A stretch of 32,615 bases of DNA, from the IMG/VR virus record IMGVR_UViG_3300044956_001053, positions 1 to 32,615 of that record, one strand, 5' to 3'. Below the pieces are notes generated by a model. The model had not been told where the DNA came from. It searched no databases and was given only the letters and a program-made list of their open reading frames with translations. Positions 6 to 27,695 of this stretch are shown piece by piece (position 1 is the stretch's first letter; every line of letters begins with the position of its first letter). Both the position numbers and the translations under genes were made by a program. This stretch comes from a virus. Lineage: Duplodnaviria; Caudoviricetes.

Positions 6-551
6 GTGGACTACCAGAGCGCCAAGGGGCGCACGTTCTACAAGCACGCGTCGCTCGCGGGCATCATGGACGCGATCACCCAGCCGCTCACGGCGCACGG
101 CTTCTCGCTCGCGTGGGTCCCGTCTACCGGCGAGCGCGGAGGCGTGCGCGTGACGTGCCGCCTGACGCACCAGGACGGCCACCACGAGGAGTGCGCGCTC
201 GAGGCCGGCGCCGACACGAGCGGCAGCAAGAGCGCGCCGCAGGCCATCGCGAGCACGATCACGCTGCTGTCCAGGTACACGGCGCTCGCGCTACTCGGCA
301 TCGCTACGGCCGACATGCCCGAGGACGGCGCGACCGTGCAAGACGCGCCGAAGGACGCGATCGACGCGGATCGGAACATGCGCGCGATGCGCTGGCTCGC
401 AGACCGCAAGATCTCGCGTGAGGCGGCCGAGTCGCACGTTGGGAGGCCGATCAGCGCCTGGACGGCTGACGACCTCGCGCGCCTCCGCGCCTACGGCGAA
501 GAGGTGGGCCGCGCCGAGGCCATCGCCCGAGGCGAGGACCCGGACGCCTGA
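6..551 (+). CDS. ERF-family single-strand annealing protein (probably 5'-truncated by window edge)
   Basis: YKHASLAGIMDAITQPLTAHGFSLAW...VRVTCRLTH..GH...QAIASTITLLSRYTALALLGIAT follows the ERF family pattern; typical phage early gene. Confidence 0.8.
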   Translation: MDYQSAKGRTFYKHASLAGIMDAITQPLTAHGFSLAWVPSTGERGGVRVTCRLTHQDGHHEECALEAGADTSGSKSAPQAIASTITLLSRYTALALLGIATADMPEDGATVQDAPKDAIDADRNMRAMRWLADRKISREAAESHVGRPISAWTADDLARLRAYGEEVGRAEAIARGEDPDA

Positions 552-555
552 TCAC

Positions 556-718
556 GCTCGGATGACCCGAGCAGGTCGGCGCGCGGCACCACGACACGCC
601 CGTCGTGCGTGCTGCGCGTCGGCCGACCCTACCCCCACAGCGGGCGCGTCGGCGGGCCTCCCTCGCCACATCCACCGACGACGCGCTGGAGCTTTCCGTT
701 CGATTCGGTGCGTGGGGA
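556..718 (+). ncRNA. Candidate structured RNA in the ERF-ParB intergenic region
   Basis: Hairpin 556-572; 13-bp stem 577-589/609-621 with two G-U pairs plus inner stem 590-595/602-607; element 633-718 closed by CCCCAC/GTGGGG with a ccgTTCGATTcgg T-loop-like arm. Confidence 0.4.
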
Positions 719-738
719 TTCCGGCGAAGGAGAAGACC

Positions 739-2511
739 GTGAAGACGACGCTGAGAGACATCGCGATCGAGGAGATCGCCGAGAGCCCCCACAACCCCAG
801 ACGCGTCTACGACGAGGCCGCGCTCGAGGAGCTGGCGGACTCGATCCGCGAGCAGGGCGTCCTCGAGCCGCTGCTCGTGCGACCGCGCGCGCAGGATCCG
901 CGCCCGCCCGGCGTGTTCTTCCCGTTCGAGCTCGTCGCGGGACACCGCCGCCTGCGCGGCGCGCGCAAGGCAGGCCTCCGCGAGGTGCCGTGCATCGTGC
1001 GCGAGCTCGACGACGCCCAGGCCCTCGAGGCCGCCCTCGTCGAGAACGGCCACCGCGAGGACGTGACGCCGCTCGACGAGGCGACCGCGTTCGCGCGCCT
1101 CATGGAGCTCGGCCGCGAGGTCCACAACATCGCGGACCGGATCGGCCGCACGCCGGGCTACGTGCGGTCGCGTCTCCGACTCCTCGAGCTCGTGCCCGAG
1201 GTGCGCTCGCTCCTGGAGTCGGGCCGCATCCACGTGGGCTCGGCGCTGCTCCTTGCCCAGGTGCACGAGAAGCAACAGCGCGAGCTCGCCGAGCGCATCG
1301 CGAAGGGCGTCTACCGGCCGCGGAAGGCCGTCGACGACCCGTGGTCGAGCACGGACGTCTCGGCGCTCCTGCGCGACACACAGCGTCGCGTCTCGCTCGC
1401 CGTATGGTCGCTCGACGACGAGAACCTCGTGCCGTCCGCGGGCCCGTGCACGACGTGCCCGCGCCGGAGCGGTAGCCAGCGCGCGCTGCTCGCCGAGATG
1501 GAGGGCGAGGACCAGTGCCTCGACGCCGAGTGCTGGTCGACCAAGGCGCGCGCGGCCGTCGACGCAGCGCAGAAGCGCGGCGCGCTCGTGCTCGCGGGCC
1601 CTCTCTTCGACCGAGCGCTCGACACGGGCGCGTTCTTCGACCTCGACAGCGACGTCGACGACCAGGACTTCGAGGACGTGCTCGAGGACGTGGCCCACGC
1701 CGAGACGTGGCGCGAGGCGCTCACGCGGGTCGGCGAGGAGCCCTCCGAGTGGACGCTCGCGGTCGACCATCACGGCGACGTTGGGCGGCTGGTGAGCGCG
1801 GCGCACCTTGCAGACCTCGTCGAGGACCACTGGCCGGAGGCCGCGCGCGTGCTCCACCTGCGAGAGCGTGCGTGGAGCCAGCGCGAGGAGGAGGAGCCTG
1901 CTCGCGCGACGGCTCCGAACGCGCCCTCGGCGAAGGCCGTGGAGGACGATGGGGCGCGCGAGAAGCAAGAGGCCGAGCGCCAGGCGCAGCGCGAGAAGCA
2001 AGCGCGCGAGGAACGCGCGCGGAGGGCAGCCGCGGACGACCTCGCCGCCGCGATCGTCGCCGCCACCACCGACGAGCGCACGACCGTGGACGTGTGGCGC
2101 GCGATCGTGCGTGTCGCGATTGCGCGCGCCGACCCCGCGCACCTCCAGGCAATCAAGCTCAGGCGCGAGCTGATGGACACAGATCACGCGCGCGCTCTCG
2201 CGACGTGGGTCATCGCCACCGAGTCGACGGCCGACCTCCGCGGGCTGCTCTTCGAGATCGTCGCCACACCCGCGCTCCGGTCGCAGTGGCTCTTCGAGGA
2301 ACACCCATCACAGCAGCACGGACCGCTCGGGATCGATCGGCTGCTCGACGCCATCGGCACGAACCCTGGTCAGGTGCTGGCCCGCGCGCGGAAGCGGATT
2401 GCCGACGAGGAGCGCGCGGCCGAGAAGGCCGCCGTGAAGGCGAAGGCCAGCGAGGCGAAGAAGGCGACGAAGAAGGCCCGCGCGGCCCGCGAGGTGCGCG
2501 ATGGGGCGTGA
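739..2511 (+). CDS. ParB/RepB/Spo0J-family protein (PRTRC ParB-like, with Cys cluster)
   Basis: GTG at 739 after AAGGAG; NPRR, GVLEPLLVR, ELVAGHRRLR, ENGHREDVTPLDEA and HTH; CTTCPRRSG...CLDAECW; Lys/Ala-rich tail. Confidence 0.85.
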   Translation: MKTTLRDIAIEEIAESPHNPRRVYDEAALEELADSIREQGVLEPLLVRPRAQDPRPPGVFFPFELVAGHRRLRGARKAGLREVPCIVRELDDAQALEAALVENGHREDVTPLDEATAFARLMELGREVHNIADRIGRTPGYVRSRLRLLELVPEVRSLLESGRIHVGSALLLAQVHEKQQRELAERIAKGVYRPRKAVDDPWSSTDVSALLRDTQRRVSLAVWSLDDENLVPSAGPCTTCPRRSGSQRALLAEMEGEDQCLDAECWSTKARAAVDAAQKRGALVLAGPLFDRALDTGAFFDLDSDVDDQDFEDVLEDVAHAETWREALTRVGEEPSEWTLAVDHHGDVGRLVSAAHLADLVEDHWPEAARVLHLRERAWSQREEEEPARATAPNAPSAKAVEDDGAREKQEAERQAQREKQAREERARRAAADDLAAAIVAATTDERTTVDVWRAIVRVAIARADPAHLQAIKLRRELMDTDHARALATWVIATESTADLRGLLFEIVATPALRSQWLFEEHPSQQHGPLGIDRLLDAIGTNPGQVLARARKRIADEERAAEKAAVKAKASEAKKATKKARAAREVRDGA

Positions 2512-3551: not shown

Positions 3552-4003
3552 CCGAGCCCGCGCGCACGTCACCGTACCTCACGACTGAGGAGGCCGCGGC
3601 CTACCTGCGGTATCGCTCGGCGTCGGGTGTGCGGAAGGCCATCGCGCGCGGTCTGCTCGTGCCCGACGGGCGTGGGCCTCACGGCATCGCGCTGTTCCGA
3701 CCTGCCACGCTTGACGCGTTCATCTCGACGAGGGCCCGTCTCCATGACCATGCAGCGAACGAAGCACCCCGGCGTCTACAGGCTGCCCGACGGACGCTTC
3801 CGCACGATCAGCGCCTTCCGCGACCCGCGCACGGGCCTACGGAAGCGGAAGGTGGACACGTGGTCGACGGCGGACGCGCCGACGCCAGCCCACGCGGCGA
3901 CGCTGCGCCTGCGCGCGCTCGAGCTCGAGCTGGCCGGACTGCGGCCACAACGGATGCGGCTGAGCGAGTACGCCGCCTCATGGCTGACGCGAAAGGGCGC
4001 TGA
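3548..4003 (+). CDS. xis: Excisionase-like HTH (HTH_17/MerR-like) protein; C-terminal tail overlaps int
   Basis: YLTTEEAAAYLRY.S..GVRKAIARG...LFRPATLDAFI; directly upstream of the integrase. Confidence 0.7.
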   Translation: MTEPARTSPYLTTEEAAAYLRYRSASGVRKAIARGLLVPDGRGPHGIALFRPATLDAFISTRARLHDHAANEAPRRLQAARRTLPHDQRLPRPAHGPTEAEGGHVVDGGRADASPRGDAAPARARARAGRTAATTDAAERVRRLMADAKGR

Positions 4004-4850
4004 GCTCGCGCCGAGCACCGTGGATCGGTACGGGCGCACGATCCTCCTGCACATCCTCCCGAGGCTCGGCGACCTCTTCCTCGATGCGCTCCAGCCCGTC
4101 GACATCGTGACGTGGCGCGACACGATCGCGAAGGTCTCCGCGCCCGCGACGACGAACAGCCATCTCCGCGTGCTGCGAGAGATCCTCGCCGACGCTGCGG
4201 CCGAGCTGCAGCTCCCGAATCCGGCCGCGCGCGTGCGTCAGGTCGCGGAGTTGCCGCGGTCCGACGGCAAGGCTCTCTCAGCCGACGAGCTCGGGCGCGT
4301 GCTCCTCGCGATGCGCGAACTCGACCTGGGCGTCTACGCGATGCTGCTGACGCTCGCGCTCACGGGAATGCGCTGGAGCGAGGCGAGCGCACTGCAGTGG
4401 CACGACCTCGGCGAGACAGAGATCCGGATCCGGCGCTCGCAGTGGCGGGGGCGCGCGCGCGACATCACGAAGAGCAAGCGGTCGCGCACCGTGCCGTGCG
4501 TGCCGGAACTCCGCGCCATCCTCGAGCAGCACCGTGCCCGCGAGATGCGCCGCCGCTCGGTCGCATGCCAGCTCGTGTGGTGCACCGAGGCGAGTAAGCC
4601 GCGCTCGCGCACCTGGGCGAGCAAGGCCCTCCAGCGCGCGATCGTGGCGGCCGAGGTGCGTCGGGTGACGCCGCACGGGCTTCGGCACACGTGGAACGAC
4701 CTCCTGCGGAGGGTCACGTCGACAGACGTACAGAAGGCCATCACCGGGCACGTCACCGAGGCGATGCGCGAGCACTACTCGCACGTCGACGCGGACGAGA
4801 AGGCAGCCGCGGCGCTTGGCGCGCTGCGGCTGGTGAAGGGCGGCGCGTGA
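3744..4850 (+). CDS. int: Tyrosine integrase
   Basis: Catalytic R (GMRWSEA), K (TKSKR), HGLRH, GH and Y (EHYSH); N-terminal arm-binding-like PGVYRLPDGRF; start may be 3744 or 3750. Confidence 0.95.
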   Translation: MTMQRTKHPGVYRLPDGRFRTISAFRDPRTGLRKRKVDTWSTADAPTPAHAATLRLRALELELAGLRPQRMRLSEYAASWLTRKGAELAPSTVDRYGRTILLHILPRLGDLFLDALQPVDIVTWRDTIAKVSAPATTNSHLRVLREILADAAAELQLPNPAARVRQVAELPRSDGKALSADELGRVLLAMRELDLGVYAMLLTLALTGMRWSEASALQWHDLGETEIRIRRSQWRGRARDITKSKRSRTVPCVPELRAILEQHRAREMRRRSVACQLVWCTEASKPRSRTWASKALQRAIVAAEVRRVTPHGLRHTWNDLLRRVTSTDVQKAITGHVTEAMREHYSHVDADEKAAAALGALRLVKGGA

Positions 4851-4972: not shown

Positions 4973-5017
4973 ACCTTGCCAAGGTTGAAGTCGAGGGTTC
5001 GAATCCCTTGTCCCGCT
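4973..5017 (+). mobile_element. attP: attP core: 3' half of tRNA-Gly(GCC)
   Basis: ACC-TTGCCAA-GGT anticodon arm, TGAAGTC, GAGGG-TTCGAAT-CCCTT T arm, GTCCCGCT acceptor 3' strand; no D arm; about 120 bp downstream of int. Confidence 0.88.
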
Positions 5018-5047
5018 TGGTCGATCGCGCGCCCGTCGCCCTCTAGC

Positions 5048-8198: not shown

Positions 8199-9550
8199 GC
8201 CGCTTCGCTCCTGCCGCCGAGCACGCGCTGTCGGATCGCGTCGCTCTCTGCGGGACGCAGGACGTGATCGTGATCGTCGTCGCGCACCCAGATCGGCGTC
8301 GACATGCACACGCCACGACGGCGGTCGATGAGGCACGCGGCCTGCCGCGCGGGCTCATGCTGAGCCTTGATCCAGTCGCTGAAAGGGGCATGGCCGATCA
8401 AGCTGCCGTTCACGAGTGCGCGCTGCGCCGAGAGGTACTGATGCCAATGGCCCATCACGGTGAGGTGCGCACGACGTGTCGTGTCCCAGCCGGCGATCGC
8501 CTTGTTGATCGGAATGCTGATGCCCCCGACACCGCCCGAGTACTTCACCGCATCGCCGTGCGTGAATCGCACCGTCCAGTCGTAGACGTCGAGGTACAGC
8601 AGCGGCCCACGCGCGACGTGGAAGACGACGCGCGGCTCGTCGGCGAAGTCTGATGCGAGCGCGTGGTAGAGGTGCTGCTCGTAGCTGTTCTCTGCGCCGC
8701 TCGAGACGCGCGGCTTGACCGTCGTGCGGCCGTGATTTCCGTAGCTGCACGGGACGACGATGCGCTCGAGCGAGGTCTCCGCGAGCAGCATGCGAATCCC
8801 GCTCGCAATGAGCTCGTGCGCGAAGCGAGTAGCTGGCAGCGGCGCAAGCTGGTTCGTCTCGACGAGCTCGTCATGGATGTAGCCGCCGATGAGATCGCCG
8901 CCGAGCCACAGGACGAGATCGCGCACTGCGAAATGCCCGTGATGGTGATCGAGGAGCCACACGACCGCGTTGAAGAAGCGCTGTGCGGAGCGCTCTGCGA
9001 TCGCGAGATCGTAGGCGTTCACTCCGCCGATCTTCGCGGGGTCGACGTACTCTTCAACGTGCCAATCACTCGCACACACGAGAAGCGCGGCCTCGCGCAC
9101 GCCATACAGGCGCTCTCGAGGCTGCACGCTCGGGGGCGGCGCATTCGCGGCGATCGAGCGAGACGTCTCGAGGTCCGCGCGTAGCCGCGCGATCTCCCGC
9201 ATGAGCTCGCGCTCGCGCTCGCCGGCCTCGCGCAGACGGTCGCGTTCGATCATCGCGCCGATCGGATCTGGCGGCGGCGATGCCGGAATGGGCGCAGAAA
9301 CGGCAACGGTGTGCCCGGTCCACGGCGACGCAGCAGGCGATCCGGCGAGGATGTGTGCGCGCTCGCGCGCATCTACGAATCCGCCGATGTCGACGTCGCT
9401 GCGAACGAACATCGGCACGTGGTGACCTTGCTCCTGCATGTCTCGGCGCGACACCTCGCGCGGAGGTCTACCGAGAATGCGCGCGACAGTGAGGATCGCA
9501 TGCGCCATCCACTCGACGCGCTGCGGAGTGCCTGGAGAGGGCTTCTTCAT
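8195..9550 (-). CDS. Calcineurin-like metallophosphoesterase
   Basis: All five motifs present: SDWH, GGD, GNHGR, THGD, GHWH; N-terminal extension with coiled coil. Confidence 0.88.
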   Translation of the reverse strand: MKKPSPGTPQRVEWMAHAILTVARILGRPPREVSRRDMQEQGHHVPMFVRSDVDIGGFVDARERAHILAGSPAASPWTGHTVAVSAPIPASPPPDPIGAMIERDRLREAGERERELMREIARLRADLETSRSIAANAPPPSVQPRERLYGVREAALLVCASDWHVEEYVDPAKIGGVNAYDLAIAERSAQRFFNAVVWLLDHHHGHFAVRDLVLWLGGDLIGGYIHDELVETNQLAPLPATRFAHELIASGIRMLLAETSLERIVVPCSYGNHGRTTVKPRVSSGAENSYEQHLYHALASDFADEPRVVFHVARGPLLYLDVYDWTVRFTHGDAVKYSGGVGGISIPINKAIAGWDTTRRAHLTVMGHWHQYLSAQRALVNGSLIGHAPFSDWIKAQHEPARQAACLIDRRRGVCMSTPIWVRDDDHDHVLRPAESDAIRQRVLGGRSEAA

Positions 9551-9891
9551 GCGTGCTCCTCCTCGATTGCGCGCTCCAGATCACGACGCGCACGCTGGAA
9601 CTCGGGCCCGTGATCCGACACGTCGCGTCCGTGCCGGTCGTAGGCGATGAGGTGCGCGAGCTCATGGCGAATGGTGTCTTCGCGTTCATCGGGCGTGCTC
9701 ATCTCGAAGACGTACTCGTCGATGAACATCCACGGCACATCCGCATCAACACACGCGTGCGTGTGCCACGCATCCCCCTCGGGGAGACGTCGACACCAGA
9801 TCACATGGAGCCTTCTCGTGATATGCGGCGCGACGAGCCCGAGCGTCCGAGACGCGTACTTCTCGACGCGAGCACGCTCACGCGCTCGCAC
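9547..9891 (-). CDS. SprT-like zinc metalloprotease
   Basis: DTIRHELAH...DHGPEFQR; GTG 9891 preceded by GAGGAGG. Confidence 0.75.
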   Translation of the reverse strand: MRARERARVEKYASRTLGLVAPHITRRLHVIWCRRLPEGDAWHTHACVDADVPWMFIDEYVFEMSTPDEREDTIRHELAHLIAYDRHGRDVSDHGPEFQRARRDLERAIEEEHA

Positions 9892-10174
9892 GAGCAGCCT
9901 CCTCCTCATCGAGCAGAAAGAGGACGCAGCATGCGGCGTGCGCGAGGTGGTGTTCACCCGTCTCCGGGTCGACGGCTTCTCCGCGCTGCCACGCCCACAT
10001 GTGGCGCATGGCGGCGGCGAAGTAGCGCCAGCGTCGACCCTCGACGAAGCGCCAGTTGTCCGGCGCATACTTGCGCGCGCCGATCTCGAGAACGCGGGCG
10101 ATCGCGTCGAGCGCATGCGGCGGCACGAGGTCGTATCGAGCCTTGCCGCGGTCGTCCTTCCGCCCGTCTGTCAT
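9878..10174 (-). CDS. DUF5664 / dATP-dGTP diphosphohydrolase N-terminal domain protein
   Basis: GRKDDRGKARYDLVP...GARKYAPDNW...AAMRH...DPETGEHHLAHAACCVLFL. Confidence 0.88.
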   Translation of the reverse strand: MTDGRKDDRGKARYDLVPPHALDAIARVLEIGARKYAPDNWRFVEGRRWRYFAAAMRHMWAWQRGEAVDPETGEHHLAHAACCVLFLLDEEEAARASA

Positions 10175-25621: not shown

Positions 25622-25998
25622 GCGCCCTCCATCGTGCGGCGCCACTCGTCGACGACGACGTCGCCGACTGAGGCGGGAGTGCGCGTGGGGAGGATCTGCC
25701 GGCGCACGCCACCGCGTGCGCGACCGTCGTTGTGGAGCGCCTCGGGGCCGTCGAGGGAGATGCTCACGCGCGACCCGTCGACGCTCACCTGCGCCTTCGA
25801 TGCAGCGCGCTCGAGGACGCGCCCCCCGGTCTTCGAGGGTGTCCACGGCGAGCCGCCGGGAGAGCGCTGGCCTGCGACCGCGGCGTTCACCTCGCTGCGC
25901 AGCACCTCGCCAACGCGCGGGGCGACGCGCTCGGCCATGCCGGAGAGCAGGTCGACGCGACGGATCATGCCGTCGAGCTGACGCATCCCGTCAGCCAT
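25618..25998 (-). CDS. Virion morphogenesis / neck protein (Mu gpG, P2 gpS-like)
   Basis: QRSPGGSPWTP...HNDG...RRQILP. Confidence 0.7.
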   Translation of the reverse strand: MADGMRQLDGMIRRVDLLSGMAERVAPRVGEVLRSEVNAAVAGQRSPGGSPWTPSKTGGRVLERAASKAQVSVDGSRVSISLDGPEALHNDGRARGGVRRQILPTRTPASVGDVVVDEWRRTMEGA

Positions 25999-26482
25999 AG
26001 GTGCCCTCACCAGCGGCGTCCTCGTCGTACGCGCGCGACGCCTGCACGTCCTGTTGCACGTACGGCGATGTCTCGGTGTATCCCAACGGCACCGGCGCAC
26101 GCAGGCCGGTGGTCGTGGTGTCGGCGCGCAGAGGGAGATCGTAGAGGCCCGTGACGGAGTCGGCGGCCTCCTTCGCCTCTGCGAGCGCGGTCTTCGCGTC
26201 CTCGTCGTACGCCGACCACTGCTGGTCGGTCGGATCGATGCCGCGCTTGAGGTAGCAGATGCGCGTCACGATGCGCGCGCACCACGCCTTGACCTTGATG
26301 GGGTACGGCACGGAGAACGGCACCGCGTAACGCTTGCGGAGGAGCGCATCGAGGTCCGCGGTCACAACCTCGCACTGCCCGGCGATGAAGCCGGGCACGC
26401 GCGCCTCGAGCTCGTCGACGTCGGACGCCGGCATGAGCGAGAGCGCGCGGAACTCCGCGAGGGTGAGGTACGAGGTCGGCAT
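25991..26482 (-). CDS. Head-tail adaptor (Mu gp36 / DUF1320-like)
   Basis: SYLTLAEF...DALLRKRYAVPF..PYP. Confidence 0.78.
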   Translation of the reverse strand: MPTSYLTLAEFRALSLMPASDVDELEARVPGFIAGQCEVVTADLDALLRKRYAVPFSVPYPIKVKAWCARIVTRICYLKRGIDPTDQQWSAYDEDAKTALAEAKEAADSVTGLYDLPLRADTTTTGLRAPVPLGYTETSPYVQQDVQASRAYDEDAAGEGTYG

Positions 26483-26492
26483 GATGCTGCGA

Positions 26493-26566
26493 TAGCGACG
26501 ACTGGATTCGCACCAGCGATCTCCGGCTTATGAGGCCGGCGAGGACGACTGCTCCTCTACGTCGCG
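26493..26566 (-). tRNA. tRNA-Met(CAT), initiator-like, non-canonical D/T loops, no encoded CCA
   Basis: CGCGACG TA GAGG AGCAGTCGT CCTC G CCGGC CTCATAA GCCGG AGATC GCTGG TGCGAAT CCAGT CGTCGCT A folds into a full cloverleaf. Confidence 0.85.
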
Positions 26567-26571
26567 ATGAG

Positions 26572-26601
26572 CGCTCCCCTCGACGTCGGCCGAGGGGAGC
26601 G
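26572..26601 (-). other. 11-bp perfect hairpin after the capsid stop codon (mRNA stabiliser or attenuator)
   Basis: CGCTCCCCTCG-N8-CGAGGGGAGCG; no U tract. Confidence 0.55.
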
Positions 26602-26606
26602 ATGGG

Positions 26607-27695
26607 TCAGGCTCCGCGGCAGCGAAAGAGCTGGAACGGGTGGCCGGGGGCCACCGTGTTGCGGCCCTGGGCGATCCACTGGAGCTCACGGGCGCGCGCG
26701 AGCTCGGCGTCGGTCTCGGGACCGACGTAGGTGATCGTGATGGGTTCGCGGTTCGAGTAGATGAACGCGCCCATCTGCGGAGAGCTGAGCTCCTGCACGA
26801 TGAGGTAATAGGTCGTTGCCGACCCGCCCATTGCAGCGCCGAGCTCGTCGGCGATGATCGGCACGCCGAGGTTCAGGTAGCTGACCACGGCCTGGATGTC
26901 GCCGGAGAGCGCGCCGCTCGCGGCCGACTGCGCGATGAACTTTGCGCTCGTGAGCAGCGTCGCGCGCGCGGCGAGCTCGGGCGGGACCATGATGCCCGTG
27001 ACGCGCAGCTTCCGGAGCAGCACGCCGTTCGGCATCTTGATGAACCCGCGGATGTAGGCGATCGCCTTCGCGAGATTCTGGAGCGCGACCTCGGCCGTCA
27101 CGGAACCAGCACCGGTCTCGTGGATCGGCAGCGCGCCGGGGTAGGCGCCGCTTGCGGCGCCCGTGAAGTCGTTCGCGAACGCACCGAAGCTCGCGTCGAG
27201 GGGGTTCACCGGATGGTCCGTCGCGAAGAAAGCCTTCGCGTCGTACGCGACGGGGTTCGCGATGATCGCCTCGGCCAGCTTCTGCTGTGGCCAGTAGGCC
27301 GCGTGCGCTGCGATGTCGCGCGTCCACTTCGAGATCGCGTCGAAGCCCGCGCGGCCAGCGACGCGTCCGCCCGAGAGCATCACAGCACCGCCGTCGAGGT
27401 CCTCGAACTCCTCGAACTTGACCTTGAGGCCCTTGCGGACGAACCGGTTCTCGAACTCCGTCGAGGCGCGGAGCAGCGTGTCGTAGGCGACCTCGCCACC
27501 GTCGTGCGCGACCTCCTCGAGCAGGCCAGTCGAAAGGAGCCAGGTGAGGCGCTCCTTCTTCGTCGTCGAGTTGAGGGTGGTCGCGATCTTGTTCCACCAG
27601 ATGTCCTGCTTCAGGCGCTGGTAGTCCTCGTTCGCGATGTCCTGGACGCGTGTCTTGAGGTCCGAGACGAACGTGGGGGTGATGATACTGGTCAT
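26607..27695 (-). CDS. Major capsid protein (Mu gpT-like)
   Basis: WWNKIA...STTKKE..TWL; AYDAKAFFATDHPVN; IMVPPEL; 362 aa; strong RBS. Confidence 0.88.
   Translation of the reverse strand: MTSIITPTFVSDLKTRVQDIANEDYQRLKQDIWWNKIATTLNSTTKKERLTWLLSTGLLEEVAHDGGEVAYDTLLRASTEFENRFVRKGLKVKFEEFEDLDGGAVMLSGGRVAGRAGFDAISKWTRDIAAHAAYWPQQKLAEAIIANPVAYDAKAFFATDHPVNPLDASFGAFANDFTGAASGAYPGALPIHETGAGSVTAEVALQNLAKAIAYIRGFIKMPNGVLLRKLRVTGIMVPPELAARATLLTSAKFIAQSAASGALSGDIQAVVSYLNLGVPIIADELGAAMGGSATTYYLIVQELSSPQMGAFIYSNREPITITYVGPETDAELARARELQWIAQGRNTVAPGHPFQLFRCRGA

Follow-up and report, generated by a model that had tools for sequence, protein, structure and literature searches.

A hairpin and an A18/G55 initiator-type tRNA-Met behind the major capsid genes of phages

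In phages of three capsid lineages, the capsid region is followed by a hairpin and then by a tRNA-CAU that carries A18 and G55 and has no encoded CCA, and six distinct tRNAs occupy this position. One of them lies in the DNA analysed here (the window, the whole stretch of 32,615 nt), where an earlier note had drawn attention to an atypical initiator-like tRNA-Met. The explanation we prefer, with about even confidence, is that the cassette tRNA functions as an initiator late in infection, is made from the transcript of the capsid gene, and yields cutting of the message as a by-product. The novelty lies in the mobile cassette linked to capsid genes and in the graded forms it takes; in literature searches of main texts, with few subscription papers among them, we found no paper on a tRNA behind a capsid gene and none on a natural A18-G55 tRNA.

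Results

The capsid-adaptor locus of the window

The late operon of the window lies on the minus strand and encodes terminase, portal, protease, head protein, a gpT-like capsid protein and a gp36-like adaptor, and further neck, sheath, tube and baseplate proteins; an integrase gene is located at 3627-4850. The phage is a temperate myovirus. Elsewhere, the window encodes a 697-aa ParB-domain protein (418-2511, plus strand) and an SprT-like protein (9547-10116, minus strand). The parts of the locus, in the direction of transcription, are as follows.

26607..27695, minus strand: major capsid gene (Mu-like gpT, 362 aa; PF10124, E 5e-12; phrog_371, E 1.4e-14)
26572..26601, minus strand: GC-rich hairpin with 11 Watson-Crick pairs, 13 pairs in the predicted fold and a 4-nt loop
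26567..26571, minus strand: 5-nt single-stranded leader ending in U(-1), a predicted RNase P leader (from sequence)
26493..26566, minus strand: initiator-type tRNA-Met(CAU), 74 nt (ARAGORN, Rfam, fold)
26550, minus strand: A18 replacing G18 (aligned to G18 of the 44RR2.8t, D3 and phi92 tRNAs)
26530..26532, minus strand: anticodon CAU (ARAGORN, Rfam; invariant in 6/6 capsid-linked copies)
26511, minus strand: G55 replacing U55 (from sequence and from covariation with position 18)
26483..26492, minus strand: 10-nt trailer from A73 to the adaptor ATG, without a Shine-Dalgarno
25991..26482, minus strand: head-tail adaptor gene (Mu gp36-like, 163 aa; PF07030, E 8e-4, under the Pfam cut-off)

The complete 74-nt cloverleaf with CAT that the earlier note had placed between the capsid and adaptor genes was recovered by three methods in agreement. 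ARAGORN found one tRNA in the window, tRNA-Met(cat) at 26491-26567 (minus strand), Rfam RF00005 matched 26493-26566 with 51.5 bits (E 2e-08; gathering threshold 29), and the cloverleaf is the minimum-energy fold of the tRNA (z -2.15). The 11-bp hairpin described upstream of it is likewise present, and is more stable than expected from its composition (z -5.2; 0/200 shuffles). As the hairpin has no U-run, the stem being followed by CTCAT, and is absent from the terminator-scan list, it was rejected as an intrinsic terminator; it is predicted instead to serve as a 3' shield of cut capsid mRNA. A hairpin of -15 to -27 kcal/mol lies upstream of 7/7 capsid-linked elements, and U is found at position -1 in 5/6 full capsid-linked copies. 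The capsid gene has a Shine-Dalgarno (anti-SD pairing -8.6 kcal/mol), and the cassette would be carried on the transcript of this gene.

An adaptor gene follows the capsid gene in most relatives, and the adaptor of L122 matched that of the window weakly (E 0.023). The adaptor ATG of the window lies 10 nt beyond the tRNA and shows no anti-SD pairing (+0.7 kcal/mol), as had been claimed. The missing Shine-Dalgarno carries little weight as evidence, however, and was rejected as proof that the tRNA punctuates the message, because it is also absent from the adaptor in 20/54 tRNA-free relatives.

Features of a bacterial initiator tRNA, and departures from them

All the sequence features attributed to the tRNA at the outset were found. 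Its acceptor has a C1xU72 mismatch followed by G2-C71 and C3-G70, and the stems contain A11-U24, G29-C41, G30-C40 and C31-G39; the D-loop reads AG instead of GG (A18-G19), the T-loop reads TGCGAAT, and A73 is followed by TCG with no encoded CCA. A11-U24 is a mark of initiator tRNAs, and with CAU and the 1x72 mismatch with 2-71 and 3-70 the window tRNA has the features of an initiator tRNA-fMet. The 1x72 mismatch and pairs 2-71 and 3-70 are the marks read by the formylase, while a Watson-Crick 1-72 pair permits elongation (excerpt of PMC6393288). Owing to C1xU72, the window tRNA lacks the Watson-Crick 1-72 pair of an elongator tRNA-Met or a tRNA-Ile2(CAU). It also lacks three consecutive G-C pairs (29-41, 30-40, 31-39), the third being C31-G39, and has A18/G55 in place of the G18/U55 elbow contact of the tRNA family, and we therefore file it as a variant of the bacterial initiator.

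Comparison with bacterial initiator tRNA-fMet of the E. coli metZWV/metY type makes the extent of this variation clear. CAU, the 1x72 mismatch, G2-C71 and C3-G70 are common to both (excerpts of PMC5389676 and PMC6393288). Also shared are A11-U24, G29-C41, G30-C40, A73 and the AGAUC variable loop, whereas the window tRNA differs in C31-G39, the A18/G55 elbow, U21 and the lack of an encoded CCA, and in being a single copy inside a phage late operon. The altered third pair need not disable initiation: C31-G39 corresponds to the '3rd CG' form of E. coli, which retains the essential G30-C40, and the E. coli '3rd CG' mutant sustains growth as sole initiator, whereas the 'mid CG' mutant (C30-G40) does not (excerpt of PMC5389676).

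The tRNA-Met/fMet genes of cultured phages (44RR2.8t, D3, phi92, SEL21, Eos, VH7D, pf16, Bajun) belong to the same D-arm families and share relaxed 29/31 pairs. That of 44RR2.8t has acceptor pairs 2-7 in common with the window tRNA and is 84.5% identical to it over 71 nt. Unlike the window tRNA, 8/8 of the cultured-phage tRNAs inspected have G18G19, U55 and an encoded CCA. For three of them wide flanks were viewed, and these place the tRNA amid further tRNA genes and not behind a capsid gene.

Covariation of positions 18 and 55 in phage initiators

G18 and U55 are generally regarded as near-universal among tRNAs. A search pattern for the T-arm in which G55 was fixed retrieved 71 viral stretches, nearly all of them initiator-type tRNA-Met with an AG D-loop. 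To avoid circularity, positions 18 and 55 were then left free in a scan whose best 119 of ~190 estimated loci yielded 84 distinct phage initiator-type tRNAs. Within this sample 28 were A18/G55, 54 G18/U55 and two G18/C55, with no mixed combination (Fisher p 1.5e-22, n=84, kinship between sequences ignored). The suggestion that the two changes compensate each other and do not reflect decay is thus borne out, 18 and 55 covarying without exception in 84 distinct tRNAs. On a weakly resolved tree built with columns 18 and 55 masked there were 12 state changes, at least three of them forced by well-supported branches, so that A18/G55 is not a single inherited event. We infer the geometry of the A18-G55 contact; G is a known turn-building option at this place, as riboswitch-type T-loops prefer G at position 2, in contrast to tRNA T-loops, which strongly prefer U there (excerpt of PMC12641257).

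Two of the oddities listed in the earlier note lost most of their weight in this comparison. Phage initiators have as a rule lost the third G-C pair, and just 9/84 retain the full set of three; G30 is kept in 81/84 while 29 and 31 vary, a pattern that would be expected if initiator function is under selection across the class. The missing CCA likewise says little, since CCA is not encoded by a tRNA gene from the likely host group either. CCA is encoded in 25/28 distinct A18/G55 copies, and 33/51 distinct G55 CAU tRNAs lie in tRNA arrays and have an encoded CCA and G30-C40. Across the 35 array loci that hold a G55 initiator, U55 is present in 193/198 neighbouring tRNAs. The 18/55 swap is therefore largely limited to the initiator in the sampled arrays, and G55 does not give general protection from a broad T-loop nuclease; perhaps it is a variant that is tolerated in the initiator only. 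Lack of TruB in the host was rejected as a cause of G55, because TruB was found in 5/5 genomes searched.

These scans yielded several further observations. L111, L132, L153 and their near-copies, and L107, L112, L118, L141, L142 and L148, contain A18/G55 tRNA-Met of a second D-arm type with a short D-loop; these copies are solitary, and some end in CAA instead of CCA. An A18/G55 tRNA-Met without CCA is found on a metagenome contig (L340:1808-1880, plus strand), not beside a capsid gene. A solitary initiator-type tRNA with G18/C55 lies ~170 nt upstream of a major head gene (L258:681-758), and another solitary initiator-type tRNA adjoins a portal-like ORF (L227). In the metagenome scan with the D-arm pattern, 42/44 loci were chance coding matches and just L313 and L340 were tRNA-like. 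Chance accounted for four of the eight matches that the 5' pattern gave in viral sequences, and 599 pattern matches in the metagenome scan with the close-capsid alignment gave no confirmed case.

The cassette in three capsid lineages

Lineage A comprises the window, L002 and contigs from sequencing runs X8, X15, X19 and X21. L002 (93% capsid identity) has the hairpin and a tRNA with compensated anticodon and T stems, and the contigs of the four runs carry a tRNA identical to that of L002. By hand reading, the hairpin in X8 and X15 is rewritten yet retains a 13-pair stem; runs X4 and X6 gave just short pieces across the spacer, and runs X1-X3, from which the window DNA may itself derive, were left out. 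The lack of any tRNA difference among the four runs is not counted as proof of selection, as the identity extends into the adaptor gene.

Lineage B (L386/L387) has a distant gpT capsid, 24% identical in a profile alignment. Its order is capsid, small gene, hairpin and tRNA, with the adaptor GTG one base past position 73, and the L386 tRNA is identical to that of L002 at 70/73 positions. L388, of the same lineage (74% capsid), has no cassette; stop and start codons overlap there, and ARAGORN with a relaxed score gave spurious calls only on L388 and L389. This overlap at the cassette site is consistent with insertion of the cassette as a unit.

In lineage C (L390, L391 and L392; 68-76% mutual identity), a stop codon, the hairpin and a CCA-less A18/G55 tRNA-CAU follow each other in 3/3 loci, and a Shine-Dalgarno-like GGAG precedes the next gene in 3/3. 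The capsid label here comes from Atlas features (score 0.98) and gene position; this protein gave no alignment to the window capsid profile (probability 0.1) and no Pfam or PHROG match. The tRNA-CAU of L390 (2818-2888, plus strand), which was missed by ARAGORN and scored 44 bits with Rfam, has C54, G55, A18 and U11-A24, having lost A11-U24 and U54.

The six capsid-linked tRNAs differ strongly, with just 38-70 identical positions of 73-75, and 99% of cells in the stem alignment are nevertheless paired, with two-sided changes in 11/20 pairs. The stems of the capsid-linked copies thus vary by paired changes and not by random decay. Invariant in 6/6 full copies are CAU, the C32-U33 loop, G2-C71, C3-G70, A73, A18 and G55; 1x72 is a mismatch in five and U-G in one, and an encoded CCA is absent from all six. 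C30-G40, the 'mid CG' form, occurs in L002, L386 and runs X8, X15, X19 and X21. From the element to the adaptor start, the trailers measure 10, 7, 1 and 0 nt.

More distant capsid loci lack the tRNA. ARAGORN found none in 112 of them (82 loci at 33-54% capsid identity plus 30 from prophages), and an RNA model built from alignment A5 gave no convincing post-capsid match in the same set; the cassette is therefore dispensable for the capsid family. Most of these loci have a plain hairpin. Matches of the RNA model in L368, L376, L029, L030, L016 and L359 (E 0.002-0.98) were excluded as lying off the capsid 3' end or lacking the loop consensus, the underlying alignments having been inspected for L368, L376 and L029 only. 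Separately, L067 and L072 have long capsid-adaptor spacers (~170-180 nt) with several motifs in common, and in both the spacer is closed by a long helix; a further conserved structured RNA behind the capsid gene is thereby suggested.

An anticodon-less relative and the question of punctuation

In five contigs with 88% capsid identity and a single spacer sequence (L003-L007), the element is reduced to its upper half. The hairpin is kept and is followed by the anticodon-less top half at L003:4115-4175 (plus strand). The acceptor stem is 6 bp long and carries U1xC72, G2-C71 and C3-G70; the T-stem is identical to that of L002 and has a canonical loop, a GNRA-capped helix replaces the D and anticodon arms, and the adaptor TTG starts directly after position 73. 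A top half of this kind arose in 1/20000 shuffles, and when 87 loci were searched with the RNA model, L003 gave the best non-tRNA match (E 0.016). The minimum-energy fold of L003 is, in fact, an alternative long hairpin (-29.3 kcal/mol, against -27.8 for the tRNA-like fold), and its spacer found no full-length match in cultured phages. No other tRNA-Met was present in the L003 phage (60% complete), which does carry a separate tRNA-Arg(TCT) at L393:1640-1712 (plus strand; G742); the tRNA-Arg has a canonical elbow and lacks CCA.

tRNAs that lie between genes can act as punctuation, directing RNase P and RNase Z cuts that make mRNA ends. It is a somewhat unlikely alternative that the element is mainly such a mark, a phage t-element whose decoding function is vestigial: excision by RNase P/Z would end the capsid mRNA at the protective hairpin, and the near-leaderless, poorly translated adaptor mRNA that remains would set capsid-to-neck ratios. 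A tRNA-like top half abutting the predicted mRNA ends, as in a t-element, is found in the window and in L003, and the retention of hairpin, acceptor and T-stem in L003-L007 without an anticodon arm is what this reading expects, as are the short trailers, the loss of G30 in L002 and L386, and the fixed position after the capsid region together with the absence of CCA. Plant mitochondrial t-elements act in this way, and a tRNA-like fold between genes would similarly direct RNase P/Z cuts and mRNA ends in the cassette (excerpt of PMC1920247). In contrast to the plant elements, the cassette lies in a phage late operon and consists mostly of full tRNAs with a conserved anticodon. Excerpts of PMC11143913 cite titles on RNase P cutting of phage C4 RNA and of polycistronic mRNA. 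A pure processing mark would need neither CAU nor the C32-U33 loop, yet both are kept unchanged in 6/6 full copies while all four stems turn over. Lineage C, in which GGAG precedes the next gene, and the tRNA-free relatives whose adaptors also lack a Shine-Dalgarno point the same way, and the anticodon-less form is a single lineage that could be a relic.

Probable host and attachment site

The 3' half of a tRNA-Gly(GCC) adjoins the integrase gene at ~4974-5018 (plus strand) and is identical at 45/45 bases to a gene in G431, a genome from the order of a Sorangium genome; judged from this match, it is the likely attP. The matching host tRNA-Gly gene has no encoded CCA. Named capsid relatives at ~50% identity are from Sandaracinus and Polyangiaceae, and together with the tRNA-Gly match they indicate that the host is probably a Polyangiales myxobacterium. 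The fMet tRNAs of the likely host are canonical, with G18/U55 and all three G-C pairs. In 401 genomes from the order of G431 the D-arm pattern found no match, and in 401 genomes from the phylum of G001 the G55 initiator pattern found none; the N55 version of the pattern matched in 5/5 and 1/1 genomes searched separately. No other full tRNA is present in a 43-kb record (96% complete) whose capsid protein and spacer are identical to those of the window.

These data bear on whether the tRNA is a neutral passenger or an attachment-site relic, left by recombination and tolerated in the spacer, which we consider improbable. The patchy distribution of the cassette would suit such an origin, as would the tRNA identity between L002 and the four runs, which reaches into the adaptor gene and fits a recent recombination block. 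At the end of contig L313 (4-76, minus strand), the 5' half of an L386-type tRNA with A18 runs into a 3' half that is canonical and has U55, and the acceptor stem is broken; this chimera or recombinant is likewise in keeping with a passenger. However, a passenger would not be expected to show paired changes in all four stems or the same position in three lineages, and the attachment site lies elsewhere, at the tRNA-Gly half. The window tRNA-Met was accordingly rejected as attP: the host fMet tRNAs differ from it, its D-arm pattern had no match in the 401 genomes from the order of G431, and identity to a host tRNA end near the integrase is shown by the tRNA-Gly half instead.

Discussion

A maturing tRNA is cut at its 5' end by RNase P, is trimmed at its 3' end by RNase Z or exonucleases, and receives CCA. 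If the cassette tRNA is a working late initiator, then by analogy with this established pathway host RNase P would cut at +1, after the short leader, RNase Z or exonucleases would trim after A73, and the host would add CCA, charge the tRNA with Met and formylate it. The tRNA would thus be made at the level of the capsid message, at the time when initiation is most in demand and defences are triggered. Through these cuts the capsid mRNA would come to end in the protective hairpin, and the adaptor mRNA would have a 10-nt leader and no Shine-Dalgarno. The resulting step-down from capsid to neck genes would be a by-product in the window, and would have been kept by the L003 lineage after loss of the anticodon arm.

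The most specific benefit that we can identify for such an initiator is a predicted escape from T-loop nucleases. Cleavage by the Cash nuclease falls 5' of U55, within the UUC of the T-loop, and is abolished by substitution of U55, adenine substitutions being those named (excerpt of PMC13462974); CdiA-CT E479 likewise cuts in the T-loop (excerpt of PMC9086364). G55 abolishes the UUC motif in the window tRNA, and this tRNA is predicted to escape T-loop-cutting defences such as Cash through removal of the site. Phage tRNAs that evade nucleases similarly differ from host tRNAs at the nuclease target sites, the changes there being in the anticodon loop; the terms 'T-loop' and 'D-loop' are absent from the main text of that report (PMC10264068). 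Against escape from defence, the U55 neighbours of G55 initiators in arrays would be left unprotected. Against a working initiator as such, C30-G40 in L002, L386, X8, X15, X19 and X21, the loss of A11-U24 and U54 in L390, and the lack of an anticodon arm in L003 would all have to be accommodated.

The copies with C30-G40 also suggest that the RNA could be a decoy or inhibitor, made in bulk, that soaks up host tRNA-binding nucleases or initiation factors, although we think this improbable. A position on the capsid transcript is predicted to give high expression, and the G30-less form present in L002, L386 and the four runs is charged and formylated in E. coli and poor at initiation, such mutants being toxic in an initiator-depleted strain (excerpt of PMC5389676). 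The window copy and lineage C retain G30-C40, however, the phage needs late initiation, and G55 removes a known nuclease motif where a decoy would be expected to display one.

The earlier note had posed a substitute initiator and a punctuation mark as alternatives. Each has support, the former from CAU and the formylation marks in 6/6 full copies and the latter from L003, which keeps only the RNase P/Z-type top half; the opposition between them need not stand, as the evidence suggests that both arise from one cassette. A tentative proposal that would join them is that tRNA punctuation operates in phage late operons, through a mobile cassette that would insert downstream of capsid genes in unrelated phages and is graded from a nuclease-proof initiator to an anticodon-less t-element. 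If this is true, the series would run from the A18/G55 initiator of the window and lineage C, through initiation-dead copies (L002, L386), to L003, and cutting by host RNase P/Z would turn the late message into two parts, a stable mRNA for the capsid and an mRNA for the neck genes with almost no leader.

The strictly covarying A18/G55 elbow is a natural alternative to the near-universal G18/U55, largely confined to initiators in these loci, and it bears on tRNA folding, on independence from pseudouridine 55 and on escape from T-loop nucleases such as Cash. Why phages carry tRNAs is an old question, to which the elbow is also relevant. With its recurrence behind capsid genes, the cassette suggests an inexpensive way to produce one tRNA in bulk late in infection. 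If excision of the tRNA also sets capsid-to-neck ratios, a phage would be using tRNA punctuation of the organelle type, and the intermediate stages would be visible in living relatives.
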